Source of the DNA: Actinomycetota bacterium
GTDB taxonomy: Bacteria > Actinomycetota > Acidimicrobiia > Acidimicrobiales > Ilumatobacteraceae
DNA: 64,000 bases
NCBI GenBank assembly: GCA_963169665.1
Contig: CAUJET010000134.1
Location: forward strand, 7,804 to 71,803
Direction of reading: 5' to 3'
Within the stretch, counting starts at the first letter, position 1; each line of letters begins with the position of its first letter. Shown here one piece after another: positions 2,749 through 53,537 of this stretch. The notes beneath the pieces were generated by a model. That model worked only from the letters and a program-made list of their open reading frames with translations. It was not told where the DNA came from and did no database searches. The position numbers and the translations under genes were made by a program.

Positions 2749-3203
2749 GCCGAGCGGGGCAACGGCACGCCGGCCGCCGCATCGCCCGACGCGACGGCCG
2801 CTGCGGCGTCGTCGAGTTCGGCGCGTTCGGGCGGGTGCACCGCCAGATCGAAGGCCAGCCACATGGTGTACGTGAACGGGTAGATCAGCACCGGGACGAC
2901 CAAGGCGACCACGAACAACGACAGCACGAACGGCAGCACCGGGATGTCGGGGGCCGTCACGACGAACCCGACGGCCATCGCCGTCGCGAGCGCGCCGAAG
3001 GTGACGATGGTGTTCACGGTCACGGTGCCGAGCTCGAACCCCTCCTCACGGTGCCAGGCGATGCCGCAGGTGCGGCAGCGGTCGTACCGTTTGAACCAGC
3101 CGCGCACGAAGGTGCGCCGGGAACCGCACCACGGACACTTCAGCAGCATCGCCCGTCCCGACATGCGGGTGAACCTCTGCTGTGTGGCGGCCATCGGTGT
3201 CAC
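2724..3203 (-). CDS. Zinc-ribbon membrane protein, DUF983-like
   Basis: CPWCG...CRTCG zinc ribbon followed by two hydrophobic helices (TVNTIVTFGALATAMAVGFVV, LPFVLSLFVVALVVPVLIYPF). Its 3' end overlaps the convergent crotonase gene by 25 nt. The family name is from memory. Confidence 0.55.
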   Translation of the reverse strand: MTPMAATQQRFTRMSGRAMLLKCPWCGSRRTFVRGWFKRYDRCRTCGIAWHREEGFELGTVTVNTIVTFGALATAMAVGFVVTAPDIPVLPFVLSLFVVALVVPVLIYPFTYTMWLAFDLAVHPPERAELDDAAAAVASGDAAAGVPLPRSAQRRKRST

Positions 3204-5539: not shown

Positions 5540-5835
5540 GTTGGTTCCTTTTCGGATCACGTTCTCGCAAGCCTAGCGCACCACGGAATCCGTCGTGAAC
5601 GGCGCCGATGGCAACGCTTCGCATCCATGCGGCCGAGCGGCGGGTGACGCCGCTGCGCGCGCACCCTGACGGAACGTGGACGCGGCGACCCTCCGTGCGC
5701 ACCTGGGCACCGGGGGCGCTCGGGCACGACGCCGGGCCGAACGGGTCGTCGGCGGGTGTGGCATCGGGCCTGGAACGGGCCACGGAACCGTTGGTGGAAG
5801 TCCGCATCGCGTCTGGCAGAATGTGGACCCTTCAT

Positions 5836-5909
<74 letters not shown>

Positions 5910-5996
5910 CTGGGCTCTCGGGCCCCATGTTGTCGGCCGGTGGTGTGGATCCCTACACTGCCGGACCGCCACACCTGCGGTAACTCGCAGCAACTC

Positions 5997-6071
5997 GCCC
6001 CTCTAGCTCAATGGCAGAGCAACGGACTCTTAATCCGCAGGTTCTCGGTTCGAGTCCGAGGGGGGGCACCA
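5997..6071 (+). tRNA. tRNA-Lys (anticodon CTT); integration target of the downstream element
   Basis: GCCCCTC acceptor, AGCTCAATGGCAGAGC D arm, anticodon loop CTCTTAA, T arm CTCGGTTCGAGTCCGAG, encoded CCA. The 3' 47 nt are duplicated at 14364-14412. Confidence 0.92.
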
Positions 6072-6073
6072 CG
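6025..6073 (+). repeat. attL core (3' half of tRNA-Lys)
   Basis: gactcttaatccgcaggttctcggttcgagtccgagggggggcaccacg, identical to 14364-14412. Confidence 0.9.
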
Positions 6074-6122
6074 CAGTACCTGGTCAGAGCCACTTTCTGA
6101 GACCAGAGTTCCTCCCCCGCTA

Positions 6123-6150
6123 CAGTCCGTGCCGCGAATCTGCCGCGAAA
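6123..6150 (+). promoter_or_regulatory. Candidate arm-type recombinase sites (2 x TGCCGCGAA) inside the left end
   Basis: cagtccgTGCCGCGAAtcTGCCGCGAAa, 13 nt upstream of the int start. A near-identical copy sits at 14232-14260 inside the right end. Confidence 0.45.
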
Positions 6151-6163
6151 GGGTGGGTCGAAC

Positions 6164-7306
6164 ATGGGGACGATGCGTGAGCGGGCGCAGGGCACGTGGG
6201 AGTTGAGCGTGGCCGCGGGACGAGATCCGGACACCGGGGCATACCGCCGCGTGATCCGAACCGTGAAGGGCGTGACGAAGCGCGAGGCCAAGGCAGCGCT
6301 CGCGGAGCTCGAAGTGGCGGTCGCCGCCGGCCGTGTGGGCGCCGACGATCCGACGCTCGCCGAGTTGCTCGAGCGGTGGATGGAACACCTCGCCGGTCTG
6401 GGCCGGTCGGACTCGACGCTGTACAACTACCGCAAGTACATCGACCGGGAGATCGTGCCGGCGCTCGGCTCGAACCGGCTGTCGAAGCTCTCCCCGCTCG
6501 ACATCGACCGCTTCTACACAAAGCTCCGCAAGCGGGGCCTGTCGTCATCGACGATCAGGCAGATGCACGCCATCCTGCGGGCCTCGCTGAACCAAGCCGA
6601 GCGTTGGGGGTTGGTGCACCGCAACGTCGCCAAGCTCGCCTCGGCGCCGTCACAGGAGCAGCGTGAGCAGCTTCCGCCGGAACCGGCGATGGTGCGAGCC
6701 CTGCTGGTCGCCGCCCGCGAGTTCGATCCGTTGTTCGGTCTCTACGTGCGGATCGCCGTGGCGATCGGTGCGCGTCGGGCCGAGGTATGCGGACTCCGAT
6801 GGAGCGACATCGACCTCGAGGCCGGCTCGTTGTCCGTTCAGCGGAGCTACCTGGCCATCCCGGGGGCGAAGGGCGACCGGCCGACCAAGACGCGATCGGC
6901 TCGCACCGTGTCGCTCGATCCGGTCACGATCGCCGCGCTCGAGGCCGGCTGGTCGACTGCCGTCCGGATCGCCGAGCTCGTCGGGATGACCGAAGCAGAA
7001 CGCCGCCAGCTCTATGTGTTCAGCACCGACCCGCTCGGGCGGAACGCGTGGCGGCCCGATGTCGCCAGCGCCAAGTGGGAGGTCGCCCGCTCCCGGGTGC
7101 CCGGCGGCGAGAGCGTTCGACTGCACGACCTCCGCCACTTCCAAGCGACGCAGCTCCTCGATGCGGGGGTGCCGGTGCCCACGGTTGCCGCTCGACTGGG
7201 CCACGCCGACGGCACGACGACGATGAAGATCTACGCCCACCGAACGCGTCGGGCCGACGAGCACGCAGCTCGCGTCGTGGCCGATTTCCTCGCCGAACCC
7301 GACTGA
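6164..7306 (+). CDS. int: Tyrosine-type site-specific integrase
   Basis: 380 aa. N-terminal SAM-like/arm-binding region; catalytic box ARRAEVCGLRWSDIDL ... HDLRHFQATQLLDAGVPVPTVAARLGHADGTTTMKIYAH (R..HxxR..Y). Confidence 0.93.
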   Translation: MGTMRERAQGTWELSVAAGRDPDTGAYRRVIRTVKGVTKREAKAALAELEVAVAAGRVGADDPTLAELLERWMEHLAGLGRSDSTLYNYRKYIDREIVPALGSNRLSKLSPLDIDRFYTKLRKRGLSSSTIRQMHAILRASLNQAERWGLVHRNVAKLASAPSQEQREQLPPEPAMVRALLVAAREFDPLFGLYVRIAVAIGARRAEVCGLRWSDIDLEAGSLSVQRSYLAIPGAKGDRPTKTRSARTVSLDPVTIAALEAGWSTAVRIAELVGMTEAERRQLYVFSTDPLGRNAWRPDVASAKWEVARSRVPGGESVRLHDLRHFQATQLLDAGVPVPTVAARLGHADGTTTMKIYAHRTRRADEHAARVVADFLAEPD

Positions 7307-7443
7307 CCGCGGTCGAGGCCGAGGAGGCCGGAATGTGGCGTACCGCGGCGGCACGCGCACGACCCGCGGCATTTCCGTGACGGTTGCGTTTCGATCGGCT
7401 CGAGTTTTCAACGCGGGCCGGTCTCGTTGTCCAGTTGTTCTAG

Positions 7444-7842
7444 GTGAAGGTATTTCTGAGCACTGCGTCGGTGACCGCCGACGCTCCGACGCTGCCCGAC
7501 TTCCTGAGCGTGAGCGAGGCGGCCCGGGTGCTGCGGGTGAGCCGCAACTCGGCGTACAAGTTGGCGAATCTGTTCATCGATTCCGACGGCGCCGAGGGCA
7601 TCCCCGCCGTTCGGTTCGGCCGGTCGATCCGGATCCCGCGAGTCGCGATCGAGGCGATCCTCGGTGGCCGCGTGTCGCTTCCCGAGTTCGACGAACGCAA
7701 AGCCTCGCTGGAGCACGCGACGCCAGTCAGGCGTTCCCGACGCAGGCGCACGACCCGCCCTCGATCAGGCGGGAACCCGTCACCCGCGGCTGATACGTCA
7801 CAGACCGTGTTCACGCAGCAGTCGCTGCCGTTCGAGGACTGA
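7444..7842 (+). CDS. xis: Excisionase-like helix-turn-helix DNA-binding protein (MerR/Xis HTH_17 type)
   Basis: GTG start. FLSVSEAARVLRVSRNSAYKLANL...IPAVRFGRSIRIPRVAIEAIL is the typical excisionase-family HTH. It has a basic, Arg-rich tail and lies between int and the relaxase gene. Confidence 0.7.
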   Translation: MKVFLSTASVTADAPTLPDFLSVSEAARVLRVSRNSAYKLANLFIDSDGAEGIPAVRFGRSIRIPRVAIEAILGGRVSLPEFDERKASLEHATPVRRSRRRRTTRPRSGGNPSPAADTSQTVFTQQSLPFED

Positions 7843-7924
7843 TCGCGTTGAACCCCATCCCGACTCATCCTCCCTGTTGCTCACTTCTGGACAGACAGGT
7901 GCCCGTTTCGGGCGGTGATGTGTC

Positions 7925-10900
7925 GTGATGCGTGTGACCACGTTGTATGCGTCGTCGGCCGCCTCGTCGGCTGCGTACTACACGAAGTACCTCACCGCCG
8001 CCCCGGGAGAGGCTCCTGGAGTGTGGATGGGCGCCCAGGCCGACGGGCTCGGCCTCGTCGGGGCGGTGAAAGGCGAGCAGTTGCAGGCGCTCCTCGCCGG
8101 CCTCGACCCCGTATCGGGACGGAGCCTCGGCCGGGCGCTGACGGATCGGACGACGAGCGATGGTCGGGTGGTGAAGGCGGTGGCGGGGTTCGACGCGACG
8201 GTGTCGGCTCCGAAGTCGTTGTCGGTGCTGTGGGCACTCACGGGAGACGACCGTCTGCTGGAGTGCCACGACGTCGCGGTCCGGGCGGTGGTGGATGCGT
8301 TCGAGCGGTGGGCCGCGACCACTCGGCTTCGCTCGGGCGGTGGTCGTCTGCATCTGGACACTCACGGTCTGTCGGTGGCGGGGTTCCGGCAGACGACGTC
8401 GCGGTTGGATGACCCGCAGATCCACACGCATCTCGTGGTGTCGGCGAAGGTGCAGACGGAGAATGGGCGGTGGATGGCGTTGGACGCGCGTGTGTTGAAG
8501 CAGCACCAACGAACCTTCGGTGGCCTGTATCAGTCGGTGCTCCGCTCGGAGGTCACGGCGAAGTTTGGGGTCGGGTGGGAGGCGATCGTGAACGGCCAGG
8601 CCGAGATCGCCGGTCTCGACCCGGAACTGCTCGCCGCGTTCTCCAAGCGTGCCGCCCAGGTGGATGCCGAAACGGATGCAAGGGTGGAGGAGTTCGAAGC
8701 ACGGGAGGGGCGGGCGCCGTCGCGGTTCGAGCGGGCGGCGATCGAGCGTGAGGCTTCTGCGGACACGCGAGTGAAGAAGACCGGCACCGCTGCCGCAGAG
8801 TTGCGGGCCGCGTGGCGCAAGGAAGCCACCGATCTCGGCCACACCCCGCGCTCGGTGATCGACGCCGTGAACACCGCCGGACGCGCACAAGCAGAGCCGG
8901 CCAAGACCACGGTCGCCGAGATCCTCACAGCGCTGTCGGATCGCAAGAGCGTGTGGCACGACCTCGACGTGCTGCGCGAGATCACCGACCGGTTCCAACC
9001 GCGACGAGGGATCTCGGGCGAGCGATGGTCGGGTGTGTTGGATCGTGCCCTCGACACGGTGCTCGAGCAGTGCATCGGCCTCGACCCCGACCAACCCGAC
9101 AGCGAAGCCGGTCGCGGGTCGGATGGGCGGTCGGTGTGGATCGAACCGGTCGCGCCACGGTGGTCGTCGCAGCAGGTGATCGATCAGGAACTCGACCTGC
9201 TCGCCTGGACGTTGAGCGCCCAAGGTCTCGAGCCGTCACCGTCGCAGTCGATCGAACGCGGCCACCTCGACGTGCTCCAGGCCGCAGCCGCAGCGGAGGT
9301 GGCGGGTGCGGATCGGTTGGTCGTGATCATCGGCCCCGCCGGCGCCGGCAAGACCAGCATGCTCACCGCAGCGATCGACGACCTCCGGCAACACGACCGA
9401 TCTGTCTTCGGCGTCGCTCCGACCGCCAAGGCGGCCCGTGTCCTCGAAGACGAGACAGGGATGCGTGCGGACACGCTCGCGAAGTTGTTGCACGAGTACG
9501 CCCGTGAGGGCGGTCCGCGACCCGAGTGGCGGTTGCGGCGCGGGACAACGGTGATCGTCGACGAGGCCGGCATGGTCTCGACACCGGATCTGTGGCGGCT
9601 CACGGACCTCGCTCAGCGCTTGGATCTGCGGGTGGTGTTGGTCGGTGACCCACACCAACTTCAGGCCGTCGCTCGCGGCGGGATGTTCCCCGAACTGGCC
9701 GCGACGGCGACGCGGAGGGTCGAGCTGGAACACGTCCATCGGTTCACCGAACCGTGGGAAGCCGCAGCGTCACTCCGGCTGCGCCGGGGTGACCCGTCCG
9801 TGCTGTCGGAGTACCTGTGGCACGGACGAGTCGAACACGGGAACATTGACGACCACCTCCGAACGATCGGGCGGCAGTGGGCCGAGGCGCAGTCGGCGGG
9901 GCGGTCGTTGGCGATCACGACCACCACCAACGAACACGCCACCCTCATCAACCACCACATCCAGAACACCCGGCTCAAGACCGGCGCGGTCACGGGCGGG
10001 CCGGTCGCTGCGGCCGACGGCGACATCTACATCGGCGATGTGGTGATGACCCGCCGCAACGACCGCACCCTCACCACCACCGCAGGTGACAGCGTCCGCA
10101 ACCGCGACCGCTGGACCATCACCGCCACCCACGACGACGGATCGATCACCGCCCACTCACACACCAGCGAGGCGACGGTGACGCTGCCGGCCGAGTATGT
10201 GCGCGAGTTCGTTCAGCTCGCCTACGCGACCACCGAGCACGGCAACCAAGGCATCACCACCGACCAATCGATCACCCTCGTCACCGGCACCACCACAGGA
10301 CGAGGTCTCTACGTTGGCGCGACCCGCGGACGCGACGACAACCAACTCTTCGTCGTCACCGACCAGCACTCCGAGCGGGAAGCCATGGACCTGCTCGGAC
10401 GGGTCCTCGCCACCGACCGGGCCGACACCCCAGCGGTCACCCATCGGCGACACCTCGCCGAACGCCAACTCGCACCGGCACCCGGGCCGCGTCGTCGAGC
10501 GGTCGAGCCCGCCTGGCTGAACGAGTGGCAGAACGATGTGCGCGACCGTGTCCCGATGATCGGCGGGCTCCTCGCCTCGATGACCGAGGAACGCCCCGCC
10601 CTCGAGCAGTCCGTCGCCCAAGCACGACAGAGCTACGACCGGGCCCGGGCACTCCCCGCACCCGACCAGCACGACCTGTCCCGAGCCCGTCGTGAGGCGA
10701 ACATCGACGACGCCGCCGCCCGCACCGCCCGCTACCGGGCGGGCAACGCCACCTGGCGAACACGCCGCCCGCTCGAGCGTGCCGCGACCGCAGCGACCGA
10801 ACGGGCAACCCTGAGCGCCGGTCGCGTCGACGAACTCGAAGCGATCTACCGGCCCGTGGCCGAACAGCGGGAGGCAACGCGTCGCGAACTGGCCGGCGCT

Positions 10901-11185
10901 ACCCAGCGGCTCGACCAGCACGACCGCCGAGCGGCCGATCTCCGCGACTACCGCGTCGACGACATCGCGCTCGACCAGGCGATCAGCACCTGGCGCACCT
11001 GGGCCGCCGGCCACACCGTCACCGGACTCGACCTCGACCACGCCGTCGGACAGTTCGCTCGATACGTCGACACCGTCCCCGGAGCCCGCGCACTCGTCAA
11101 CGCGCTCGCCTCCGAACACGTAGCGCTGAACCCGCCCGCACAGCTCGTGGACCGAGCCGATGTTGACTTCGGTATCGAACTCTGA
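7925..11185 (+). CDS. MobF-family (TrwC/TraA-like) relaxase fused to a helicase domain
   Basis: 1086 aa. N-terminus YYTKYL...GxWxG...AGFDATVSAPKSLSVLWAL...HTHLVVSAKV (relaxase His motif). Central Walker A IIGPAGAGKTSM and VIVDEAGMVS (AAA_30/RecD-like). Long C-terminal Arg/Ala-rich helical tail. ATG at 7928 is an alternative start. Confidence 0.9.
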   Translation: MMRVTTLYASSAASSAAYYTKYLTAAPGEAPGVWMGAQADGLGLVGAVKGEQLQALLAGLDPVSGRSLGRALTDRTTSDGRVVKAVAGFDATVSAPKSLSVLWALTGDDRLLECHDVAVRAVVDAFERWAATTRLRSGGGRLHLDTHGLSVAGFRQTTSRLDDPQIHTHLVVSAKVQTENGRWMALDARVLKQHQRTFGGLYQSVLRSEVTAKFGVGWEAIVNGQAEIAGLDPELLAAFSKRAAQVDAETDARVEEFEAREGRAPSRFERAAIEREASADTRVKKTGTAAAELRAAWRKEATDLGHTPRSVIDAVNTAGRAQAEPAKTTVAEILTALSDRKSVWHDLDVLREITDRFQPRRGISGERWSGVLDRALDTVLEQCIGLDPDQPDSEAGRGSDGRSVWIEPVAPRWSSQQVIDQELDLLAWTLSAQGLEPSPSQSIERGHLDVLQAAAAAEVAGADRLVVIIGPAGAGKTSMLTAAIDDLRQHDRSVFGVAPTAKAARVLEDETGMRADTLAKLLHEYAREGGPRPEWRLRRGTTVIVDEAGMVSTPDLWRLTDLAQRLDLRVVLVGDPHQLQAVARGGMFPELAATATRRVELEHVHRFTEPWEAAASLRLRRGDPSVLSEYLWHGRVEHGNIDDHLRTIGRQWAEAQSAGRSLAITTTTNEHATLINHHIQNTRLKTGAVTGGPVAAADGDIYIGDVVMTRRNDRTLTTTAGDSVRNRDRWTITATHDDGSITAHSHTSEATVTLPAEYVREFVQLAYATTEHGNQGITTDQSITLVTGTTTGRGLYVGATRGRDDNQLFVVTDQHSEREAMDLLGRVLATDRADTPAVTHRRHLAERQLAPAPGPRRRAVEPAWLNEWQNDVRDRVPMIGGLLASMTEERPALEQSVAQARQSYDRARALPAPDQHDLSRARREANIDDAAARTARYRAGNATWRTRRPLERAATAATERATLSAGRVDELEAIYRPVAEQREATRRELAGATQRLDQHDRRAADLRDYRVDDIALDQAISTWRTWAAGHTVTGLDLDHAVGQFARYVDTVPGARALVNALASEHVALNPPAQLVDRADVDFGIEL

Positions 11186-11285
11186 GCGGAGGGGCTTAGC
11201 GTCCGTTGGGCGGAAGCCTCATGCTCATTGCCGGTTGCAATGCATCACTTAGCAGCCGCTGAACGATTTGGAGTTGTTCTTCCGC

Positions 11286-12008
11286 TCACAGGTCAACATC
11301 TAAGGGTGAATCCATAGTGACCCATTCGTTAGCGGTTTGCATTTGGGACGATAGAGCTGAAAGAAACAAGCGCGATCCAGCCACGTATATCGACCAGAAG
11401 TCGACGTCGGTCGCGACGAACCACGCTCGATCATCGGGCCAGAACAAGTCGGGGTTTCGCCACTCATTGAATCCCGGAAAGACAAGCCTTGTTGCTGACT
11501 TCACAGGTCCACCTAGGAGATAGTACGCACGGTTCGGCCGGTGGAACTGCTGAAGATCTTCTAGTTCGACTCTGATAAGAGCGTTTCGTTGGCCGTCCTG
11601 CATTGTGGCCATTCGACGCTCGGCAGCTAGGAGCAAAGACGACTCCTCGTCGAGTTGGGTGGAGGAGGCAATGCGCGTTGATCCCTTGTCGAAGCCATGC
11701 CCTTCCCAAATGGCAAACCATGCGCGTTCAGGAGTAGTTGTATACCGTTCGCCAATGGATGCAATCGTCTGAAATTGGCTTCTATAGTCAGCCCACCAAC
11801 CGGTCGGTTTTGGAGCGGCCGGCAACACTCTAAGTATCCCCTCAAAGCGATCCGGAACAAGGGATCCGACCGAACCGTTTGCGCCCTGGCACTCCTCATC
11901 GATCCAGAGCGCTGGCGCATCCTCCTTTGCGGCAAAGACAAATCGCCCGAAAGGCATCTCTCCAGGGCTCGCCTCGCGATCATGTCCGTGAATTGGATCT
12001 CGAGTCAT
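11286..12008 (-). CDS. Hypothetical cytoplasmic protein (cargo gene 2; possible immunity-type protein)
   Basis: 240 aa in a ~50% GC segment with no signal peptide or TM helix. Its start is 12 nt after the stop of the upstream secreted-protein gene. The C-terminal motif NPDLFWPDDRAWFVATDVDFWSIYVAGS recalls DUF2716/immunity-like families (unverified). Confidence 0.65.
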   Translation of the reverse strand: MTRDPIHGHDREASPGEMPFGRFVFAAKEDAPALWIDEECQGANGSVGSLVPDRFEGILRVLPAAPKPTGWWADYRSQFQTIASIGERYTTTPERAWFAIWEGHGFDKGSTRIASSTQLDEESSLLLAAERRMATMQDGQRNALIRVELEDLQQFHRPNRAYYLLGGPVKSATRLVFPGFNEWRNPDLFWPDDRAWFVATDVDFWSIYVAGSRLFLSALSSQMQTANEWVTMDSPLDVDL

Positions 12009-12020
12009 AGCGTCCGCCTA

Positions 12021-12713
12021 TCAGGTCGGATAGCACCACAGTTGTTTGTCAGCGCCTTGGGAGTAGCCGGAGGGATCGGACCAGTTGACAAGGTCGACGT
12101 CAACTTGCTCGCGATACACGACAACCGAGTTCGTGTTGGCGCACGTACGGCGGGCGTTCGCCCAGTTGGTAGAGCCTCCGCCTGCATACACAGTCCTCTG
12201 ACCGCTTGCCAGCGTCACCCATCCGCATCCGGTGAAACTACCGCAACCGTAAGCCTGCAGGTAGATGGTCACGATCGCCTTTGAAGGGCAGGTATTGCCG
12301 CTTACGCTCTCCTTGGTCCACCACCCGTGAACGGAGGCATCAGTCGTGCCGGTGGAAGTTGTGGTATGGATGTTGTCTGAATTCTGTCGATATTTGCAGG
12401 TTCCTGCGGTGATCACACTTGAAACAACGTACGATGGCTTTGCACGAAATCCAGCGGACTGTCCTACTTTTTCGGTCTGCTCGGGAGGTGTCTCGAGAGG
12501 CCGCGATCTATCCTCAGGGCCTGCCTTCGCAAGGAACACGAAGTCGGACGGAATGTCGTCAATCGTGCGTGGAAACTCTGCTAGCCGTTCCGGGGACGAA
12601 CTGGTGTTGTCGGGAGCGGCGAAGTCGACTGCCCCTACCGAGGTTGTCATTGGACTTATCGCGGTCACCGCACATCCCACTGCAATGGCGCAATAGATGA
12701 CAGCCGTCTTCAT
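12021..12713 (-). CDS. Secreted six-cysteine protein of unknown function (cargo gene 1)
   Basis: Track ORF trimmed to the ATG at 12711-12713. Signal peptide MKTAVIYCAIAVGCAVTAISPMTTSVGA, then an acidic/Pro-rich spacer, then a C-terminal ~130-aa domain with 6 Cys (TCKY, TCPS, GCGS, GCGW, TCAN, WCYP). ~50% GC. Confidence 0.7.
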   Translation of the reverse strand: MKTAVIYCAIAVGCAVTAISPMTTSVGAVDFAAPDNTSSSPERLAEFPRTIDDIPSDFVFLAKAGPEDRSRPLETPPEQTEKVGQSAGFRAKPSYVVSSVITAGTCKYRQNSDNIHTTTSTGTTDASVHGWWTKESVSGNTCPSKAIVTIYLQAYGCGSFTGCGWVTLASGQRTVYAGGGSTNWANARRTCANTNSVVVYREQVDVDLVNWSDPSGYSQGADKQLWCYPT

Positions 12714-12883
12714 CGCTTCTCCTGTCGGGTGGGTATTCGTGGCGTAACGACCATCGAATCTCAGTTCTCTGAGAGAGTAGCATCCTTCGAGAACGTGGGT
12801 CAACAACAAGAACGCAGGCAGATGAAGTCGTTGAACTGACTCCATTCGATGGACTCTGCCTCACGCAACGGGGGTTTTGTCGA

Positions 12884-12920
12884 CGACGCTCGAAAACTGG
12901 TCAGTAGCGACGCTCGAAAA
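12884..12920. repeat. 13-bp direct repeat pair CGACGCTCGAAAA in the cargo/TA intergenic gap
   Basis: Copies at 12884-12896 and 12908-12920, with starts 24 bp apart. Confidence 0.6.
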
Positions 12921-13421
12921 GTGAACACTCGAAGATTGGACTTCCGCAAGCAGCCCTCTTGAACACGATCTTGAGGCGCGATCTACGGATCGTCAATGAA
13001 CACCTCCGGAAGGGCCTGGCACCACTCACACGTCACCAACGGCCGACCGTAAGCCGCTAACGACTCTGCAAAACGGACACACGCGTCGTACTCGGACTCG
13101 TCAACTTCCGCCACCAACGAATCTGCTGCGTGCTTTACGCCAGCCAATCCGACTGAATCCCCAAGAACCCACGATCCATCGCCGAGACACGAAGAACCAG
13201 CTTCTCAAGCGTGGCACACCATGCCGCTGATCGTGCGCCTGTCCGGGACCGTGCCCCCAGCGACCCGCTGCGGACTGTGGCGAACCTGCGGGCCGCCGAT
13301 GCGGAATGGCGACTTCAGCGAGGATCAACGGATCGAACCTCGAGGTGGACTACACCCGGGACACCCACGAAGCGGTTGCAACCTGCTGGACAATTTCGGT
13401 TGTTGCGGCAACTATGTGTAC

Positions 13422-13715
13422 ATGAACGCGTACATATCGGTCCCAGAGACCGTCAGCGACACTCGCAAGCACCTCACCGGTCACGTAGCGCGGTTCCGGT
13501 CGGAAGGCATCGGGGCCTCCCCCGTGGTCTTCGGAGATCGCCGCCACCCCGACGCAGTGCTCATGCCCTACGAGACGTTCCGCCTCCTGCTCGACATCGC
13601 CGAGGACCTGGTGATCGCAGAGCGGATCCACGAGCGAGACGCCGCCGACAGCGGAGAGCGCACCTCGTTGCGAGATGTCGCCGACGAGTTCGGCATCGAC
13701 CTCGACACGCTGTGA
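13422..13715 (+). CDS. Type II antitoxin, Phd/YefM family
   Basis: Track ORF trimmed to the ATG at 13422: MNAYISVPETVSDTRKHLTGHVARFRSEG...PVVFGDRRHPDAVLMPYETFRLLLDIAEDL. This is the Phd/YefM fold pattern. Confidence 0.85.
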   Translation: MNAYISVPETVSDTRKHLTGHVARFRSEGIGASPVVFGDRRHPDAVLMPYETFRLLLDIAEDLVIAERIHERDAADSGERTSLRDVADEFGIDLDTL

Positions 13716-14197
13716 CGAGCACGCCTGGCCAACGGACCGAGCCAGGTTCGTCGCCGTTCACTCGCGTCCAGTTCACCAACGCGGCCATCGACGACCTCCA
13801 CGGCATCCGAGAGCGCGCGGCCCCGGTGCTGCGAAGCGTGTTCACCGCGTTGAAGGCACTCGACCAGGGCACGCTCCGACCGACACCACTGAAGCACTAC
13901 GCCAAGACCGGTGACCTCCGCGACTGCGGCAAGGTGGTCGTCGAGACAGCCGGCCATCCCGAGTACCGCATCGTGGTCCGCGAGGCCGGCGGCACCATCG
14001 AGATCATCGAAGTCGTCACCGTCGAAGAACGAGCCGACGACCTCGCCTACCTCCTCGCCGGGGTGCGCCTCGGTCGGATCACCGACCCGATCCGACGATC
14101 CGACACCGACCGAAAGATCGCACGGATCCGCAAACTCAGAAGCGGATCGAGCGCGCCGCCGACCACCCCGACGAAGGGGTCCGAGACGTCTCCGTGA
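13712..14197 (+). CDS. Type II toxin, RelE/ParE superfamily-like, with a ~60-aa C-terminal extension
   Basis: GTG at 13712 overlaps the antitoxin TGA (GTGA). The core LKHYAKTGDLRDCGKVVVETAGHPEYRIVVREAGGTIEIIEVVTVEERADDLAY fits the RelE/ParE beta-sheet pattern. The tail is Ser/Pro/Thr/Arg-rich. Confidence 0.7.
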   Translation: MTSTPGQRTEPGSSPFTRVQFTNAAIDDLHGIRERAAPVLRSVFTALKALDQGTLRPTPLKHYAKTGDLRDCGKVVVETAGHPEYRIVVREAGGTIEIIEVVTVEERADDLAYLLAGVRLGRITDPIRRSDTDRKIARIRKLRSGSSAPPTTPTKGSETSP

Positions 14198-14231
14198 CGC
14201 ACTGCAGATCACGGAGTCCGCAGGCCCTGCG

Positions 14232-14260
14232 CAGTCCTTGCCGCGAATTTTGCCGCGAAA
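14232..14260 (+). promoter_or_regulatory. Candidate arm-type recombinase sites (2 x TGCCGCGAA) inside the right end
   Basis: cagtcctTGCCGCGAAtttTGCCGCGAAa, in the same orientation as the 6123-6150 copy and ~105 bp inside attR. Confidence 0.45.
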
Positions 14261-14363
14261 CGTGCTGGGACAGGATGGGACGGACGGTACAGTCTGGATT
14301 GCCGCACCCGCTCTGAGCAGGTGCGACGTGACACAACAACACTCGTTGGCACGGCGCTGGGGC

Positions 14364-14412
14364 GACTCTTAATCCGCAGGTTCTCGGTTCGAGTCCGAGG
14401 GGGGGCACCACG
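14364..14412 (+). repeat. attR core (duplicate of the tRNA-Lys 3' half)
   Basis: 49/49 identity to 6025-6073. The upstream sequence does not continue the tRNA. Confidence 0.9.
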
Positions 14413-14450
14413 ACGCCGCGGTCCACGGACCACGGCGTTTCGTCGTTTTC
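14413..14450 (+). terminator. Intrinsic terminator candidate, probably the original tRNA-Lys terminator displaced by the insertion
   Basis: ACGCCG-c-GGTC-cacg-GACC-a-CGGCGT stem-loop followed by TTTCGTCGTTTTC, starting immediately after the attR copy of the tRNA 3' end. Confidence 0.5.
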
Positions 14451-14478
14451 GGCCGGTTCGAGCGCCCGGCCGCCGGGG

Positions 14479-15078
14479 TCAGGACCGAGCGGCCGACAGC
14501 GACGATCGGCGGCGCGGCGCAGCTGCCACCTCGTGGTGCACATGGACCCGGTGACCGTCCCGATCGAACAGCATGATCACCTCGGCCGGCCCGTCGACGG
14601 CCGTGATCGCGTGCGGTGTCATCGTGGCGAACTCGGCCACCTCGCCCGATTCGACCAGGACCTCGCGGTCGCCGAGCAGCAGGCGCACACGCCCCTCGAT
14701 CACGAAGAACCAGTCGTGCCCCGGGTGCACCCGCTGTTCGGGCACCCGCCCGCTCGGCTCGAACCGCATCTTCACGGCGACCGTGGTGCTCGTCGGCCGG
14801 CTGAGCACCCAGGTCGTGGTGTCGCCGTCGCTGGCCGCCACGGGGCGGATGACGACGTCGTCGTCGTGACGGACCTCGAGCAGCGCGTCGAGGTCCACGT
14901 GGAGCGCCCGAGCGAGCGGGACGAGCACGTCGAGGCTGATCGTGCGATGCCCGGTCTCGATCCGGCTGATGGTGGAGGCGCTGAGGTTGGTGCGGCTCGC
15001 CACCTCGTCCAGCGACAGGCCGAGCGTGGTGCGCAGGCTGCGCAACCGAGTGCGTACCACCCGCTCGATCTCCTGCAT
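14479..15078 (-). CDS. XRE-family transcriptional regulator with C-terminal cupin domain
   Basis: Only the last 199 codons of the 1676-aa track ORF are credible (ATG at 15076-15078). HTH LSLDEVASRTNLSASTISRIETGHRTISLDVLVPLARAL, then cupin HPGHDWFFVIEGRVRLLLGD...FATMTPHA. Confidence 0.9.
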   Translation of the reverse strand: MQEIERVVRTRLRSLRTTLGLSLDEVASRTNLSASTISRIETGHRTISLDVLVPLARALHVDLDALLEVRHDDDVVIRPVAASDGDTTTWVLSRPTSTTVAVKMRFEPSGRVPEQRVHPGHDWFFVIEGRVRLLLGDREVLVESGEVAEFATMTPHAITAVDGPAEVIMLFDRDGHRVHVHHEVAAAPRRRSSLSAARS

Positions 15079-15174
15079 CTCACCCACCCGGGGCCTCCCG
15101 TCGACGTCGTCAATGGCTTGCGAATCCTGCAAGGTGTGTTGCAGCTCTCGACAGACGATCGTACCGTCGATTCC

Positions 15175-16770
15175 ATGAGCGAACACTCGAGACACGTCAT
15201 CGAACGACACTGCGACGTCGCGATCGTCGGCGGATCGGCAGCTGGCCTCGCTGCCGCCGTCCAACTCGGCCGCCAACGTCGATCCGTGATCGTGATCGAC
15301 GCGGGCGAACCCCGCAACGCGCCGGCGGCACACATGCACGGCTTCCTCGGCCATGACGGCGTGCCGCCGTCGGCGTTCGCGGCGATCGGTCGCGAGGAGG
15401 TGAGGTCCTACGGGGGCGAGGTGCTCACGGCCCGAGCCGTCGACGTCCGCCGGACCGACGACGACCGCTTCGTGGTCGAGCTCGTCGGCGGGCACACGGT
15501 CGTCGCCCGACGGGTCCTCGCCGCCACGGGACTCGTCGACGTCCTGCCCGACGTCGACGGCCTGGCCGAGCACTGGGGCTCCGACGTGATCCACTGCCCG
15601 TTCTGCCACGGGTACGAGGTCCGCGACCGGCACATCGTTCAGATCGTCACCCACCCGATCGGGCTCCACACCGCCGGCCTCTTCCGGCAGCTGACCGAGC
15701 ACCTCACCGTCGTGCTCCACAGCGGGATCGACGCCGACGACCCGGCCCTCGACGCCCTCGACGCGCTGCGAGCCGCCGGCGTCGCCGTCGTCGACGGGCC
15801 GGCGGTGCGAGTGGTCGCGGACGACCAGGGACGCGTGAGCGCGCTGGAGATCGCCGATGGCACCCACCTCGTCGCACAGGCGATCGTGGTGGGCACTCGC
15901 TTCCGGGTGCGCGCCGAGGCATTCGCAACGCTCTCCCCGGACATGACCGATCACCCGTCCGGCCTCGGCCAGGTGATCGGTACCGACCCCACCGGCCGCA
16001 CGTCTGTGCCCGGACTGTTCGCCGCCGGCAACGTGGCCGACCCCGGCCAACAGGTCGTCCACGCCGCGGCCAACGGCAGCTGGGTCGGCGGCATGATCAG
16101 CGCCGACCTCGCCCAGGCCGACATCCAGGCGGCGGCTCGACCGTCCGCGAACCGCGACGACTGGGACCGCCGCTACAGCGGTGACCAGATCTGGAGCGGC
16201 AATCCGAACGGTTCGCTCGTGACCGAGGTCGGCGAGCTCGCACCGGGACGGGCCCTCGACGTCGGCGCCGGCGAGGGCGGCGATGCCGTCTGGCTCGCCG
16301 AGCGGGGGTGGCAGGTCACCGCCAGCGACATCTCCCCTCGGGCGCTGGCCCGCATCCGAACCGTCGCTGCCGAGCGAGACCTCACGATCGACTGCCTCCC
16401 TGCCGATGCGAACTCGGTACAGCCGTTCCCGATCGGAGCGTTCGATCTCGTCACGGCCCACTACGCGTCGATCCCGCGTACGGCCGATGGCCGAGGCGTC
16501 GCCCACGTCGTCGATGCGGTGGCGCCGGGAGGCACCCTGCTGGTGGTGGGCCACGACCTCGAACCGATGCGGGCGCCGATCGACACCACGACTCGCAGCC
16601 GACCGTTCGACCCGGATGCATACGTCAGGCCGGACGACTTCGCGCGAGCGCTGCGCGGCTCGGAGGAGTGGGTGGTCGAACGTCACGAGACCCGGGCCCG
16701 ACCGGCGGGCGCGGCCTCGGCATCCCATCACGTCGACGACGTCGTGTTCCGCGCCCGTCGCAACGGGTGA
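15175..16770 (+). CDS. Bifunctional thioredoxin-reductase-like FAD oxidoreductase / class I SAM-dependent methyltransferase fusion
   Basis: Track ORF trimmed to the ATG at 15175. N-terminal half: DVAIVGGSAAGLAAA (FAD GxGxxG), CPFCHGYEV, GLFAAGNV. C-terminal half: ALDVGAGEGGDAVWLAERGWQVTASDIS (SAM motif I). Confidence 0.85.
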   Translation: MSEHSRHVIERHCDVAIVGGSAAGLAAAVQLGRQRRSVIVIDAGEPRNAPAAHMHGFLGHDGVPPSAFAAIGREEVRSYGGEVLTARAVDVRRTDDDRFVVELVGGHTVVARRVLAATGLVDVLPDVDGLAEHWGSDVIHCPFCHGYEVRDRHIVQIVTHPIGLHTAGLFRQLTEHLTVVLHSGIDADDPALDALDALRAAGVAVVDGPAVRVVADDQGRVSALEIADGTHLVAQAIVVGTRFRVRAEAFATLSPDMTDHPSGLGQVIGTDPTGRTSVPGLFAAGNVADPGQQVVHAAANGSWVGGMISADLAQADIQAAARPSANRDDWDRRYSGDQIWSGNPNGSLVTEVGELAPGRALDVGAGEGGDAVWLAERGWQVTASDISPRALARIRTVAAERDLTIDCLPADANSVQPFPIGAFDLVTAHYASIPRTADGRGVAHVVDAVAPGGTLLVVGHDLEPMRAPIDTTTRSRPFDPDAYVRPDDFARALRGSEEWVVERHETRARPAGAASASHHVDDVVFRARRNG

Positions 16771-16812
16771 CCGCCGACCGGTGACCGCGCACCGGACTCG
16801 TACGATGCGGCG

Positions 16813-17715
16813 ATGAACACCGCAGCGATCGATCACGGCCGGCACACGGCGTACACGGCACCCGGGCAGTACTCGGTGCTGCTCGAGGCGTTGCCCACCT
16901 CGCCGGAGGAGCTGTCGGCCGTCGCCCGCAACGTCGTCGTCCACTATCGGGCATCGGGCGAGGTGCTGCCCGAGGCCACCCGCGGCGAGGTGAACTCGCG
17001 ATGGGTCGCTGCCATGCTCGCCGCCGATCAGTCGCGGCACCCGACGCCGCTCGACACCACCCGAGCGATCACCGATCGGGTGCAGGGATGCTGCCGCGAC
17101 CACACGCTGCTGTGCGTCGCAGCATTGCGTCAGCACGGCATCCCGGCACGGTCGCGGGTCGGGTTCGCCGGCTACTACGTCGAGGGCTGGCACCACGACC
17201 ACGTGATCGTCGAGGCGTGGATCGACGGCCGGTGGCGACGCTTCGACTCCGAGGTCGAGGCCCCTCTCCCCGGCATGCCGCAGCCGATGGACCTCTCGTT
17301 CGACGTCGCCGGTGGCCGCGGGTTCGTCACGGCCGCGACGGCCTGGCTCGCACATCGGCGCGGCGAACTCGACGTGTCGAACCACGGTGTCGATCCGTCG
17401 CTGCCGCTGTTCGCCGGCGAGCGGTTCGTGTTCGACGAGGTCATCTACGAGATCGCGCACCGCTTCGGCGACGAGTTGCTCCTGTGGGACTCGTGGGGAC
17501 GGATCGGCGTTCCGGGCGAAGCCGTGACCGCCGAGGACGCCGCATGGCTCGACGAGGTGGCATCGATGCTCATCGCCGCGGACGCCGGTGACGTCGAGGT
17601 CGAGCGCCGCCTGTTCGCCCGCTACGCCGACGATCCCGGCCTGCGCCCCGGCCGCACCGTGATGCAGCACTCGCCCTTCGGCGACGACTCGATCGAGGTC
17701 GAGCTGCACCCCTGA
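16813..17715 (+). CDS. Transglutaminase-like cysteine peptidase domain protein
   Basis: 300 aa. QGCCRDHTLLCVAALRQHGIPARSRVGF...WHHDHVIVEAWIDGRWRRFDSE carries the Cys-His-Asp transglutaminase core. Confidence 0.85.
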   Translation: MNTAAIDHGRHTAYTAPGQYSVLLEALPTSPEELSAVARNVVVHYRASGEVLPEATRGEVNSRWVAAMLAADQSRHPTPLDTTRAITDRVQGCCRDHTLLCVAALRQHGIPARSRVGFAGYYVEGWHHDHVIVEAWIDGRWRRFDSEVEAPLPGMPQPMDLSFDVAGGRGFVTAATAWLAHRRGELDVSNHGVDPSLPLFAGERFVFDEVIYEIAHRFGDELLLWDSWGRIGVPGEAVTAEDAAWLDEVASMLIAADAGDVEVERRLFARYADDPGLRPGRTVMQHSPFGDDSIEVELHP

Positions 17716-17730
17716 CGCTCCCGACACCGG

Positions 17731-17750
17731 CTGGGTACGGCTGGGTACGG
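17731..17750. repeat. 10-bp tandem duplication (ctgggtacgg x2) between a stop codon and the next start
   Basis: Read directly; lies between the 17715 stop and the 17758 start. Confidence 0.7.
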
Positions 17751-17757
17751 TGGTCCG

Positions 17758-18594
17758 ATGGGTTGGTACGAGCCTCGACGCCCCAGGGCCGACCTCGCCT
17801 CCGTGCTCGCGTGCGCGTGGACCGCTCGGCCGACGGGACGCCACCGGCTGGTCCCCGACGCGTGCATGGACCTGCTGTGCATCTGGCGCGACCACGACCC
17901 GGTCGTCACACCCGACATCTGGCTCTGCGGACCCGAGCGGACGGCATGGACGTTCGAGCTCCCGCCCGTCGCCGTCGCCGTCGGCGTCCGGTTCCGACCG
18001 GGGTGCGCATCGCTCGCGTTCGAGGTCGACGCCTCGTCGATGCTCGACCGGCGTGTCCGCTTCGACGACGTGGTGGGCCTCGATGCCGCCGATCGGGTCC
18101 GCGCCGCCATCGCCGCCATCGCCGGGATCGACGGCCTCGACGAGCGGGCGTCGGCGTTCGAGGCGGCGCTGGCACCATGGCTGCGCGACGTCGATCGAGA
18201 CGAACTCGCCTTCGTCGACTCGATGACCGACCTCCTGGTCCGCTCCCCGCGCGTCGCGCAGTCGCACCTCGCGACGACGGCCGGCATCACACCGCGGCAC
18301 CTCCACCGCCGGCTGTTGCGAACCTTCGGGCACGGATCGGCGATGCTCGGACGGCAGCTCCGGTTCCAACGGTTCCTCGCCGTGCGCGAGCAGGCGTCCG
18401 ACGCCGCGACGTGGTCGCTCGCCGAACTGGCGGCCGCCGCCGGGTACGCCGACCAGGCGCACCTGTCGCGTGACTGTCGGGCGCTCACGGGCCTCACCGT
18501 CCGCAACTTCCTCGACCAGTGGTTCCCCACGTTCCCCGACATGTCCGATCCGTTCAAGACCGCGGCGCCGCTGGTCGCGACGATGGGTCGATGA
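17758..18594 (+). CDS. AraC-family transcriptional regulator
   Basis: 278 aa. C-terminal double HTH: LATTAGITPRHLHRRLLRTFG...LAELAAAAGYADQAHLSRDCRALTGLTVRNF. Confidence 0.85.
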   Translation: MGWYEPRRPRADLASVLACAWTARPTGRHRLVPDACMDLLCIWRDHDPVVTPDIWLCGPERTAWTFELPPVAVAVGVRFRPGCASLAFEVDASSMLDRRVRFDDVVGLDAADRVRAAIAAIAGIDGLDERASAFEAALAPWLRDVDRDELAFVDSMTDLLVRSPRVAQSHLATTAGITPRHLHRRLLRTFGHGSAMLGRQLRFQRFLAVREQASDAATWSLAELAAAAGYADQAHLSRDCRALTGLTVRNFLDQWFPTFPDMSDPFKTAAPLVATMGR

Positions 18595-19142
18595 CCCCCG
18601 CCGAACGCTTCCACCATCACGCCGACCGCTTCGACCGATTGATCGCCTCCGTCCCCGCCGATCGTTGGGACGCTCCATCGCCGTGCGACGGGTGGACGGC
18701 CCTCGACGTCGTCCGCCATGTCGTCGACACCGAACTCGACCTCCTCGGCAGGATGGAGTTCGAGCGGCCGGCGGTCGACGACCTCGAGCCACTCGACGCG
18801 TGGCCGCTCGTGCGGACCGCGATGGCAGCCGCGCTCGACGACCCGGCCTGCGCTGGCTTCGCCTACGACGGCTACTTCGGACCGACCACGTTCGGCGCGA
18901 CCGTCGACCAGTTCTACAGCTTCGACCTCGTGCTGCACCGCTGGGACATCGCCCGTGCCACCGGGCTGCGACAGCACGAGGAGATCGAGCCGAACGAGAT
19001 CGTGCGCATCCGCACCGACGCGGCCGGGTTCGGCGAGGCGATGCGCATGCCCGGCGTGATCGGCCCCGAGGTCCCTGCGCCGGCAGACGCGACCGACGAG
19101 GAACGATTGCTCGCCTGGTTGGGTCGCGACCCGCGCGCCTGA
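18591..19142 (+). CDS. DinB/MDMPI-like metal-binding protein (TIGR03086-like)
   Basis: ATG at 18591 overlaps the AraC TGA (ATGA). FHHHADRFDRLIASVPADRWDAPSPCDGWTALDVVRHVV is the mycothiol-maleylpyruvate-isomerase N-terminal domain pattern. Confidence 0.8.
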   Translation: MTPAERFHHHADRFDRLIASVPADRWDAPSPCDGWTALDVVRHVVDTELDLLGRMEFERPAVDDLEPLDAWPLVRTAMAAALDDPACAGFAYDGYFGPTTFGATVDQFYSFDLVLHRWDIARATGLRQHEEIEPNEIVRIRTDAAGFGEAMRMPGVIGPEVPAPADATDEERLLAWLGRDPRA

Positions 19143-19225
19143 CGACTCGATCGGGTCCGGCACTCCCCGAGTACCGTCGGGCCGCGGTCCTCGCAGGGGA
19201 AGGACCGCTTCTGGAGGGGATCCCG

Positions 19226-20458: not shown

Positions 20459-20465
20459 CGCCGTT

Positions 20466-40912: not shown

Positions 40913-41027
40913 GCGCATTGGACGTGGCTCCCGCACTGGTCGGTTCCCGACGGAACCGGATTTCTTCCTCGGATCCGTCCCGGGATCGACGATCTCGGCC
41001 CGGTGGCCGTCGTCGCGCTCCTCCGGG

Positions 41028-52766: not shown

Positions 52767-52800
52767 GCGCGGGTCGTCCCGTCGTTCTCGTCGGCGTCCG

Positions 52801-53523: not shown

Positions 53524-53537
53524 CGGATCGTTCGTCC

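Follow-up and report, generated by a model that had tools for sequence, protein, structure and literature searches.

The stretch of DNA analysed here (hereafter the window) comprises 64,000 nucleotides of contig CAUJET010000134.1 from an uncultured freshwater bacterium of the class Acidimicrobiia (Ilumatobacteraceae-like), and carries at positions 6025-14412 a segment of seven genes enclosed by two copies of a direct repeat derived from the gene of tRNA-Lys(CTT). In this paper, we describe this segment, compare it with related loci and contigs (designated by L numbers), and argue that it is probably a canonical integrative mobilizable element (IME) in the 3' end of the tRNA-Lys(CTT) gene, and a member of a large, hitherto undescribed family in Acidimicrobiia.

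Insertion site and boundaries of the element

The integration target is the tRNA-Lys(CTT) gene at 5997-6071 on the plus strand (ARAGORN; Rfam tRNA 66.4 bits), which lies downstream of a tRNA-His(GTG) gene on the same strand (5837-5910; ARAGORN; Rfam 62 bits). The tRNA-Lys gene is intact, as the core of the element rebuilds its 3' part. A repeat finder detected the direct repeat GACTCTTAATCCGCAGGTTCTCGGTTCGAGTCCGAGGGGGGGCACCACG, which is 49 nt long and perfect, as the initial annotation of this DNA had reported; its two copies, the attL core at 6025-6073 and the attR core at 14364-14412, both read on the plus strand, and the core extends from 4 nt ahead of the anticodon to 2 nt beyond the encoded CCA. 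An exact match of this length cannot be due to chance, and a core reaching from the anticodon loop to the 3' end of the tRNA is the usual layout for integrases that target tRNA genes. An identical core is found in the sister element L001 described below. Inside the left core, the element-side attL arm (6074-6163, plus strand), located 5' of the integrase gene, contains a motif of the form ..CCTGGTCAGAGCCACTTTCTGAGACCAG ... GCCGCGAATCTGC, which recurs after tRNA-Lys in many related genomes together with related integrases; the same arm is present in L001, L005, L028, L051, L055, L061, L063, L069 and others. The element-side attR arm (14230-14363, plus strand) is 70% identical over 184 nt to the sequence just inside the attR of L024, an otherwise unrelated island that has kept this arm, and that occupies the same tRNA with a 69%-identical integrase. 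Beyond the right core, the chromosomal flank at 14413-14452 (plus strand) consists of a hairpin followed by TTTCGTCGTTTTCGG, and resembles a native tRNA-Lys terminator by its likeness to empty sites, since in the empty sites L025, L026, L032 and L036 a hairpin and TTCGTCGTT are located directly 3' of tRNA-Lys. As the flank after attR matches this arrangement, the right boundary of the element can be placed at the native tRNA terminator. In L001, the attR is followed by the same right flank as in the window.

If the second 49-bp copy were an assembly duplication, as the initial annotation had cautioned, there would be no element at all; the evidence leaves this explanation a negligible chance. 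Logan public short-read contigs from other sequencing runs, which were recovered through exact-protein look-ups of cargo protein A and of the transglutaminase-like protein in the right flank (both described below), match 10232-14413 at 99.4-100% identity and extend through the inner arm and the complete attR core (L100), and the second copy was independently assembled in both L100 and L113. Furthermore, the chromosome-side contigs L111-L114 start either exactly where the core starts or about 30 nt short of its end, and breaks at the edges of the core are how an assembler with k≈31 behaves at a true repeat. The inner arm and the attR core, with breaks at the core edges, are thus reproduced by independent assemblies from several sequencing projects. 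In addition, a sister element in another metagenome-assembled genome (MAG) has the same structure, and the genes enclosed by the repeats form a coherent mobile-element set.

Gene content of the element

Frame analysis of the GC content at third codon positions (GC3), together with domain searches, identified seven genes between the repeats. This inventory is the one given in the initial annotation, i.e. an integrase, an excisionase-type helix-turn-helix (HTH) protein, a MobF/TrwC relaxase of 1086 aa, a two-gene cargo of foreign composition and a Phd/RelE-type toxin-antitoxin (TA) pair, with no type IV secretion system (T4SS), FtsK/TraB translocase, coupling protein or replication initiator among them. 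The tyrosine integrase (380 aa; 6164-7306, plus strand) matches Phage_integrase (1.4e-19), SAM_3 (4.6e-11) and the integrase family phrog_1 (5e-69), and its RKHRHY-type catalytic signature is complete, with ARRAE at 203, TKT at 241, HDLRH at 321, LGH at 345 and IYAH at 356.

The second gene (7444-7842, plus strand, with an alternative start at 7471) encodes a protein of 132 aa that scores above both curated cut-offs as a member of HTH_17 (40 bits; cut-off 27) and of the 'excise' family TIGR01764 (31.2 bits; cut-off 28.8), and that also has an excisionase match in PHROGs. In all 15 loci that cover the region upstream of the relaxase gene, an HTH_17 gene adjoins the latter, even where the integrase gene is located 10 kb away on the other strand; the gap between the two is always 80-90 bp throughout the relaxase family, and two loci, L083 and L098, contain an extra HTH_17 gene. 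The initial annotation had termed the protein excisionase-type, in accordance with the domain match; given the linkage of its gene to the relaxase rather than to the integrase, however, it may act in the relaxosome as an accessory factor, either in addition to a function as a recombination directionality factor or in place of one.

The third gene encodes the relaxase and is described in the next section. Downstream of it, the composition changes from 67-70% GC in the backbone to 56% GC in a block at ~11.2-13.2 kb, in agreement with the foreign origin proposed for the cargo on compositional grounds. In this low-GC segment, cargo gene A (11286-12008, minus strand) encodes a cytoplasmic protein of 240 aa without family assignment, for which no match was found in Pfam, NCBIfam, PADLOC or PHROGs; it has 302 homologs, mostly in Acidimicrobiia, and its AlphaFold2 model has a predicted local distance difference test (pLDDT) score of 91 and no fold match in the PDB (best Foldseek E = 0.12). 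Cargo gene B (12021-12713, minus strand) encodes a protein of 230 aa with a signal-peptide-like N-terminus and a Cys-rich beta-sandwich domain at the C-terminus containing five invariant Cys, and its matches are generic Ig-like ones only. Homologs of A and B co-occur as a pair in other Acidimicrobiia (P0124 and P0183 on one contig, and P0123 and P0167 likewise), and each of the two proteins has 100%-identical matches in public data. Searches of Pfam, NCBIfam, PADLOC and PHROGs, a sequence search of the PDB and Foldseek against the PDB returned nothing specific on the function of the cargo, and no defence-system model in PADLOC matches A or B.

The following low-GC stretch (12714-13421), which separates the divergent cargo operon from the TA operon, contains no open reading frame (ORF) with coding-type GC3 and no Rfam match; to judge from its composition, it is presumed to be a promoter region. 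The putative antitoxin gene (13422-13715, plus strand) encodes 97 aa, or 164 aa if the start at 13221 chosen by public gene callers is used, and its stop codon overlaps the start codon of the toxin gene (13712-14197, plus strand, 161 aa). As a single sequence, the toxin matches ParE (0.0019) and RelE (0.0008) below the curated cut-offs, and single-sequence PDB searches with the toxin and the antitoxin gave nothing relevant. A profile built from 30 relatives of the toxin, on the other hand, matches E. coli RelE (4v7k) with E = 1.9e-4 as well as RelK and YoeB, and 11 of these 30 relatives match Pfam ParE_toxin. We therefore accept the toxin as a member of the RelE/ParE superfamily by profile similarity, so that this part of the earlier assignment is borne out, while the antitoxin is only tentatively assigned to the Phd/YefM type, its match to PhdYeFM_antitox (E = 0.0075) being weak and under the cut-off.

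With these genes the coding capacity between the repeats is all accounted for, and searches with Pfam, NCBIfam, PADLOC and PHROGs revealed no gene for a T4SS, a type IV coupling protein (T4CP), VirB4, FtsK/TraB or a replication initiator (Rep; RepSA/RepAM). Phage structural, packaging and replication genes are likewise absent from the element, for which PHROGs gave no matches beyond an integrase, an excisionase and, generically, a helicase. Among the remaining ORFs of the 64-kb window, the ten largest contain no conjugation domain, and include housekeeping genes such as those for SMC, Ffh, pyruvate kinase and a GGDEF-EAL protein.

The MobF relaxase and a candidate origin of transfer

The relaxase gene (7925-11185, plus strand) encodes 1086 aa, in which a MobF/TrwC relaxase is fused to a superfamily 1B (SF1B) helicase of the TraI/RecD2-like type. 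The protein scores 224 bits with the NCBI model NF041492 for MobF (cut-off 100) and 248 bits (1e-73) with Pfam TrwC, and its C-terminal part matches AAA_30 (1.8e-54), TraI_hel_assoc_N and the RecD2 model (1.9e-25), with Walker A GPAGAGKT at 470 and Walker B VDEAGM at 545. The N-terminal HUH relaxase domain aligns end to end with the structures of pCU1 TraI and TrwC (PDB 3L57 and 1OMH; E ~2e-26). Residues Y18-Y19 align with the YY pair of pCU1 TraI, and the motif YYTKYL is kept across the family, whereas a lone Tyr, Y22, stands in for the second YY pair of TrwC/TraI. The metal site of MobF relaxases is formed by three histidines, H150, H161 and H163 in TrwC numbering; in the window relaxase, the HxH part is present as H167-T-H169, and the first ligand is Gln (Q156, in RQTTSR; window 8387-8392, residues 155-156), compared with His in pCU1 TraI (RHETSR). 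More than 1155 homologs of the relaxase were found at E<=1e-10; the 120 of them that were listed are all at least 49% identical over the aligned region, and most have ~1085-1127 aa. Against the PLSDB plasmids, the best identity of the relaxase domain is only 37%, and against TrwC it is ~26%.

By aligning ~130 nt 5' of 16 relaxase genes, we have found an invariant block of 15 nt, GACAGACAGGTGCCC, which is located at 7890-7904 in the window, 21 nt upstream of the relaxase gene, and reads GGGCACCTGTCTGTC on the minus strand. The block is identical in 19/19 relaxase loci, including those whose relaxases are ~50% identical, and the remaining spacer varies; it occurs once, at the same offset 5' of the relaxase start, in each locus that covers the region, and is unique in the window. 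In the R388 record, IR2 followed by ATTGTCT/AT is present exactly, upstream of trwA-trwB-trwC and on the strand opposite to these genes. Our block contains TGTCT, and its position and strand relative to the relaxase operon correspond to the geometry of R388 IR2-nic relative to trwABC. On the minus strand, GGGCACCTGTCTGTC is preceded by a weak GC hairpin of 4-5 bp (7900-7913), which we have dropped as support for an origin of transfer (oriT) because its folding z-scores, given below, are not significant, so that only the invariance of the sequence is retained. We consider the block a good candidate for the oriT/nic region and claim nothing more for it; the predicted nick would fall on the minus strand between GGGCACCTGTCT and the GTC that follows.

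The same relaxase and site could also be explained if the element were an integrative rolling-circle replication (RCR) replicon, in which the relaxase-helicase acts mainly as a replication initiator that keeps the excised circle. In its favour, the chemistry of HUH relaxases is that of RCR Reps, no rep gene exists besides the relaxase gene, unwinding would require no other protein given the fused helicase, and the conserved site is located right next to the gene, an arrangement known from many RCR replicons. We nevertheless regard this explanation as highly improbable, since the protein exceeds the cut-off of the NCBI equivalog model for MobF and aligns in full length with pCU1 TraI and TrwC, and since the spread of the family over many tRNA sites and species implies horizontal movement. 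Moreover, in known cases such as ICEBs1, the relaxase-driven replication of an integrative and conjugative element (ICE) accompanies transfer and is not known to replace it.

A related motif was also observed apart from any relaxase gene. The locus L024 (reverse-complement 11672-18618) is a 6.9-kb island at the same tRNA-Lys with its own 45-bp repeat, the 69%-identical integrase and the shared attR-side arm mentioned above. At 18243-18261 (tool coordinates 3111-3129, minus strand) it contains GACAGACAGGTGCCCGCGG, which agrees with the relaxase-site motif of L099 at 19/19 positions and is preceded by three partial repeats ACGACAGAC. We considered and rejected this motif as a sign of a relaxase in L024, which has none; it is an orphan copy in a different island. 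Judging by the motif match, it may be an orphan oriT, through which the island could be mobilised by relaxases of this family, or a remnant.

The tRNA-Lys site in related genomes

Relatives of both the flanks and the relaxase are MAGs labelled as Acidimicrobiales, Ilumatobacteraceae or Acidimicrobiaceae, largely from lakes, rivers and groundwater. Using the aminotransferase of the left flank, we have fetched 80 species-level orthologous loci, in which the ancestral gene order is aminotransferase, tRNA-His, tRNA-Lys, zinc-type alcohol dehydrogenase (21094-22083 in the window) and acetyltransferase. The 49 loci with at least 1.5 kb of sequence 3' of tRNA-Lys were classed as empty (8 loci, with the ancestral neighbour 42-590 bp away), as carrying an adjacent integrase (8 loci), or as containing other, unrelated DNA (33 loci). 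The tRNA-Lys locus is therefore an integration hotspot. As the initial annotation had suggested, we also joined 5997-6073 to 14413 onward into a synthetic empty junction; in BLASTN against the relatives, no match went past ~15 nt of the right flank except in the genome that carries the sister element. A same-flank empty site is lacking because the region to the right of the tRNA is hypervariable, 14413-~21090 being absent from most relatives. The expectation of an unoccupied site was thus borne out by eight more distant species, in which tRNA-Lys directly abuts the ancestral neighbour, but not by a genome with the exact right flank of the window minus the element.

In most related species, the 6.7 kb at 14413-21092 of the window are missing, and the gene at 21094-22083 directly follows tRNA-Lys. 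Encoded in this region are an XRE-cupin regulator on the minus strand (~14479-15087), a fusion of Pyr_redox and methyltransferase (~15175-16770), a P450 (~19226-20458), a transglutaminase-like protein, AraC and DinB proteins and a small ORF of 159 aa; the region may be older island material, and has no recognisable att remnant. The ORF of 1676 aa at 14479-19509 on the minus strand, which was in the mechanical list, is spurious.

Several other occupants of the site were observed. In L005 (97% flank protein identity; reverse-complement 11843-15000), tRNA-Lys is followed by ~70 nt of the attL arm without an integrase, beyond which a TetR-like and a DUF222/HNH-like gene are located; an element seems to have decayed here or to have been replaced. 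L033 (reverse-complement 11644-14368) carries an element with integrase, HTH_17 protein and relaxase at the same tRNA-Lys(CTT), the contig covering the first 48 codons of the relaxase gene. With the integrase of the window, that of L033 shares only 29% identity; unrelated integrases have converged on one tRNA-Lys target. In L011, L023, L027, L040, L054 and others, the MAG contigs stop from a few to a few dozen bases past tRNA-Lys, a pattern that is expected if populations are polymorphic for insertions. Elsewhere in the window, outside the element, two chromosomal ORFs with coding-type GC3, at 39224-40936 (minus strand, 570 aa) and 52234-53568 (plus strand, 444 aa), have no Pfam match at E<=1e-5.

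A sister element and selection on the backbone

The genome GCA_026393475.1 (L001), the nearest relative, with 98% flank protein identity to the window, contains an element at the same tRNA-Lys, bounded by identical 49-bp cores 9,682 bp apart. The proteins of the two elements are 99.7% (integrase), 93% (HTH_17 protein), 89% (relaxase) and 96% (TA pair) identical, and L001 has three different cargo genes between the relaxase gene and the TA pair. At the nucleotide level, the backbones are 84-97% and the flanks about 92-96% identical. The synonymous divergence (dS) between the window and L001 is 0.118 for the integrase, 0.119 for the HTH_17 protein and 0.07-0.10 for the TA pair, compared with 0.126 for recA and 0.22 for amt. 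A recent horizontal transfer between the two genomes, which the near-identical integrases might suggest, was therefore rejected, the dS of the integrase being like that of recA; the identity of the integrase proteins is due to purifying selection rather than to recent transfer. On the basis of these divergences, the two copies most likely descend vertically from one insertion, with later replacement of the cargo. The ratio of nonsynonymous to synonymous divergence (dN/dS) is 0.010 for the integrase, 0.22 for the relaxase, 0.30 for the HTH_17 protein and 0.21-0.26 for the TA pair; all these backbone genes are under purifying selection, which argues that they are still in use.

A further repeat was noticed in L001. 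Its attR core with ~46 nt of flank (17774-17868) is followed 3.1 kb on by a degenerate copy (21009-21068), which comprises the last 22 nt of the core and 36 nt of flank at 86% identity, and the pair brackets a DUF5005 and a MaoC gene. The arrangement looks like the tandem accretion of an integrase-less island at the same site.

A family of tRNA-targeting elements

We have sampled about 20 neighbourhoods of the relaxase family from NCBI, JGI and metagenome contigs. They share a common design, in which an HTH_17-type gene of ~120-130 aa, a spacer of 80-90 bp, the relaxase gene and a few variable genes are accompanied by a tyrosine integrase gene at either end. Perfect tRNA-derived repeats delimit five of the elements: the one in the window (tRNA-Lys(CTT), 49-bp repeat, 8.3 kb), L001 (tRNA-Lys(CTT), 49 bp, 9.7 kb), L098 (tRNA-Ala(TGC), 46 bp, 11.5 kb), L083/L090 (tRNA-Arg(ACG), 44 bp, 12.1 kb) and L088 (tRNA-Ala(TGC), 55 bp, 13.5 kb). 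Further copies adjoin the genes of tRNA-Gly, -Pro, -Val and -Lys(TTT). Neither in the five delimited elements nor in any of the sampled neighbourhoods was VirB4, a T4CP or FtsK found. Integration modules can thus be exchanged around a conserved module of HTH_17 and relaxase genes, and therefore the elements appear to form a mobile modular family rather than a set of decayed ICEs. No description of this family was found in the literature.

The cargo of the family includes RHS/PA14 proteins, an ABC-transporter ATPase, sigma factors and methyltransferases. Giant RHS/PA14 genes were observed in L002 (14601-22088, 2,495 aa) and L088 (13401-19781, 2,126 aa), with small ORFs after each of them, and may represent polymorphic toxin/immunity cassettes spread by the IME family.

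Mobilizable element or alternatives

The repeats, the gene inventory and the family context together favour an IME over an ICE or an actinomycete ICE (AICE), the choice that had been made in the initial annotation: the five delimited elements of 8.3-13.5 kb are all without transfer machinery. Nonetheless, a number of observations weigh against the interpretation as a functional IME. The Logan contigs end at the 49-bp core, so that they are uninformative on excision, and no attP or attB junction was seen in them. The dS between the two sister elements ranges from 0.07 to 0.28, like that of recA and amt, which fits vertical co-inheritance and gives no sign of recent transfer. The hairpin beside the candidate nic site is not supported by DNA folding (z = -1.3 to +0.2, compared with -2.8 for R388), and L099 has none; moreover, most copies of the 15-nt block start with TTGACA, so that the block could be a promoter or operator instead, although a scan of 5800-14700, limited to the sigma-70 consensus, found no promoter-like site. 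In the relaxase, Gln occupies the first position of the three-His site in 115 of 120 relatives as well, and raises a question about catalysis; as it is fixed in 115/120 relatives, sequence comparison points to a trait of the clade rather than to a lesion or decay. Finally, neither the window nor the fetched loci revealed a conjugative system that could serve as a helper, and a literature search returned nothing relevant on conjugation in Acidimicrobiia or Ilumatobacter.

Taken at face value, the host-like divergence of the sister elements at one and the same site and the lack of a helper in the window and the fetched loci would suit a stranded or domesticated remnant, i.e. an element that was once mobile, or an ICE that has decayed and lost its T4SS, and that is now inherited only vertically and kept by its TA pair. 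Such decay does occur at this site, as L005 keeps the attL arm only and no integrase. We consider a remnant unlikely, however, as the backbone has intact ORFs, retains the catalytic motifs and is under strong purifying selection (integrase dN/dS 0.01). Besides, the design of integrase, HTH protein and relaxase is found at no fewer than seven tRNA genes, where the integrases are unrelated (27-29% identity), and this recurrence calls for repeated mobility and exchange of modules rather than for the decay of a large ICE. The different cargo of the two sisters also argues that the element is still recombinationally active.

The missing helper admits a second explanation, namely that the family is self-transmissible through a host-encoded or unrecognised route of DNA export in Acidimicrobiia. 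There are >1155 relaxases, yet no T4SS or T4CP was found in about 20 neighbourhoods or in 1.45 Mb of related DNA, and no conjugative system was found reported for the class in the literature. This negative evidence is thin, as neighbourhoods were sampled: in a tblastn search of the 1.45 Mb of fetched DNA, R388 TrwK (VirB4), TrwB (T4CP) and TrwD (VirB11) found no match, these proteobacterial probes being liable to miss divergent actinobacterial genes or a divergent T4SS; TrwC, as a control in the same search, found every relaxase. No candidate export gene beyond the integrase, HTH_17 protein and relaxase is conserved in the elements, and we regard such a route as highly improbable.

The IME interpretation accordingly remains the one we favour, and from the gene content and the parallels with characterised systems we infer how excision, nicking at oriT, the action of the HTH_17 protein, transfer and the recourse to a helper might proceed. 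The integrase, probably directed by the HTH_17 protein, would recombine the two 49-bp cores to release a circle of ~8.3 kb, restoring tRNA-Lys and its terminator. The relaxase would bind the conserved site just 5' of its own gene, nick one strand and become covalently attached to it via Tyr18/19; the nicked strand is likeliest the one opposite to the relaxase coding strand, such that the relaxase gene would enter the recipient last. The fused SF1B helicase would unwind the DNA. Because the IME encodes neither a coupling protein nor a mating channel, a helper channel would be needed, and the nucleoprotein would presumably be exported by hijacking those of a conjugative element resident in the same cell. 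Once inside the recipient, the strand would be recircularised by the relaxase, and the integrase would insert the element into tRNA-Lys. The RelE/ParE-Phd pair would stabilise the element, and the low-GC two-gene cassette would be exchangeable cargo.

Ilumatobacteraceae-type Acidimicrobiia are abundant, uncultured freshwater bacteria whose routes of gene exchange are essentially undescribed. The element and its more than 1000 relatives reveal in this lineage a coherent set of actively maintained, tRNA-targeting mobilizable islands that shuttle secreted proteins, RHS toxins, ABC transporters and TA modules. They provide several handles, i.e. the candidate 15-nt recognition site of the relaxase, the relaxase-linked HTH_17 partner and the conserved His-to-Gln change in the metal site, and pose the question of which conjugative machine is ridden in a class for which none was found reported. 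A more far-reaching view, which joins these points, is that a very large family of MobF hitchers dominates the mobilome of freshwater Acidimicrobiia, that it uses a transfer route other than a classical T4SS on a plasmid or ICE, that relaxase-less islands with the same integrase/attP module and an orphan oriT, such as L024 with its 19-nt motif, form a second tier of parasites, and that the Gln-His-His relaxases are a mechanistically distinct MobF clade; taken as a whole, we find this view unlikely. For the specialist, the present findings are useful rather than surprising.

Comparison with known systems

The AICEs, of which pSAM2 is the type, transfer double-stranded DNA by means of an FtsK-like TraB, replicate by RepSA/RepAM and have no relaxase; their range of sizes is comparable to the size of the element in the window. 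Like them, the latter is located at a tRNA gene of a high-GC actinobacterium and has an integrase and an HTH_17 protein of the Xis type, but it differs from them in having a relaxase and in having neither TraB nor Rep. With the T4SS-type ICEs of Actinobacteria it has in common a tyrosine integrase at the 3' end of a tRNA gene, a relaxase of the TrwC family and a high-GC host; ICEs of this type with TrwC-like relaxases are treated by Bordeleau (2012; PMC3429521) and reportedly by Ghinet (2011). The actinobacterial elements with TrwC-type relaxases described so far are such ICEs, whose defining feature is that a VirD4-like T4CP is encoded together with a VirB4-like ATPase (PMC3429521); both are absent from the element in the window and from all sister elements.

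As in R388 TrwC and the TraI proteins of pCU1 and F, an HUH domain is followed by an SF1B helicase, and the candidate site, with its TGTCT, is located 5' of the relaxase operon on the opposite strand. Unlike TrwC/TraI, the relaxase in the window has Gln for the first His and Y22 for the second YY, is ~26% identical to TrwC, and has a weak hairpin at its site and no linked T4CP or T4SS. The accessory protein would be of the HTH_17 type, as opposed to the TrwA type in R388, whose trwA gene bears no annotation other than hypothetical in the R388 record.

The closest correspondence is with canonical IMEs, with which the element shares its small size, a tyrosine integrase together with an excisionase-type protein, direct repeats that flank an insertion in the 3' end of a tRNA gene, one relaxase gene, a presumed oriT, a TA module and variable cargo, as well as the lack of a T4CP and of mating pair formation genes. 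An ICEfinder-type pipeline would label it an IME, and automated catalogues contain thousands of IMEs, including some in Actinobacteriota (PMC10201445). According to Guedon et al. 2017, the known canonical IMEs use MobP, MobQ, MobV or MobC relaxases and none uses MobF or MobH, and only one actinobacterial IME, with a MobV relaxase, was known (PMC5704250). The element in the window differs from the IMEs in that review in its MobF relaxase with a fused helicase and in its host, an uncultured member of Acidimicrobiia, and it would extend canonical IMEs to a relaxase family unrepresented among the characterised ones as of 2017 (PMC5704250). Its architecture is conventional and ordinary in kind; what is new is the relaxase family and the host lineage in which this architecture is found.

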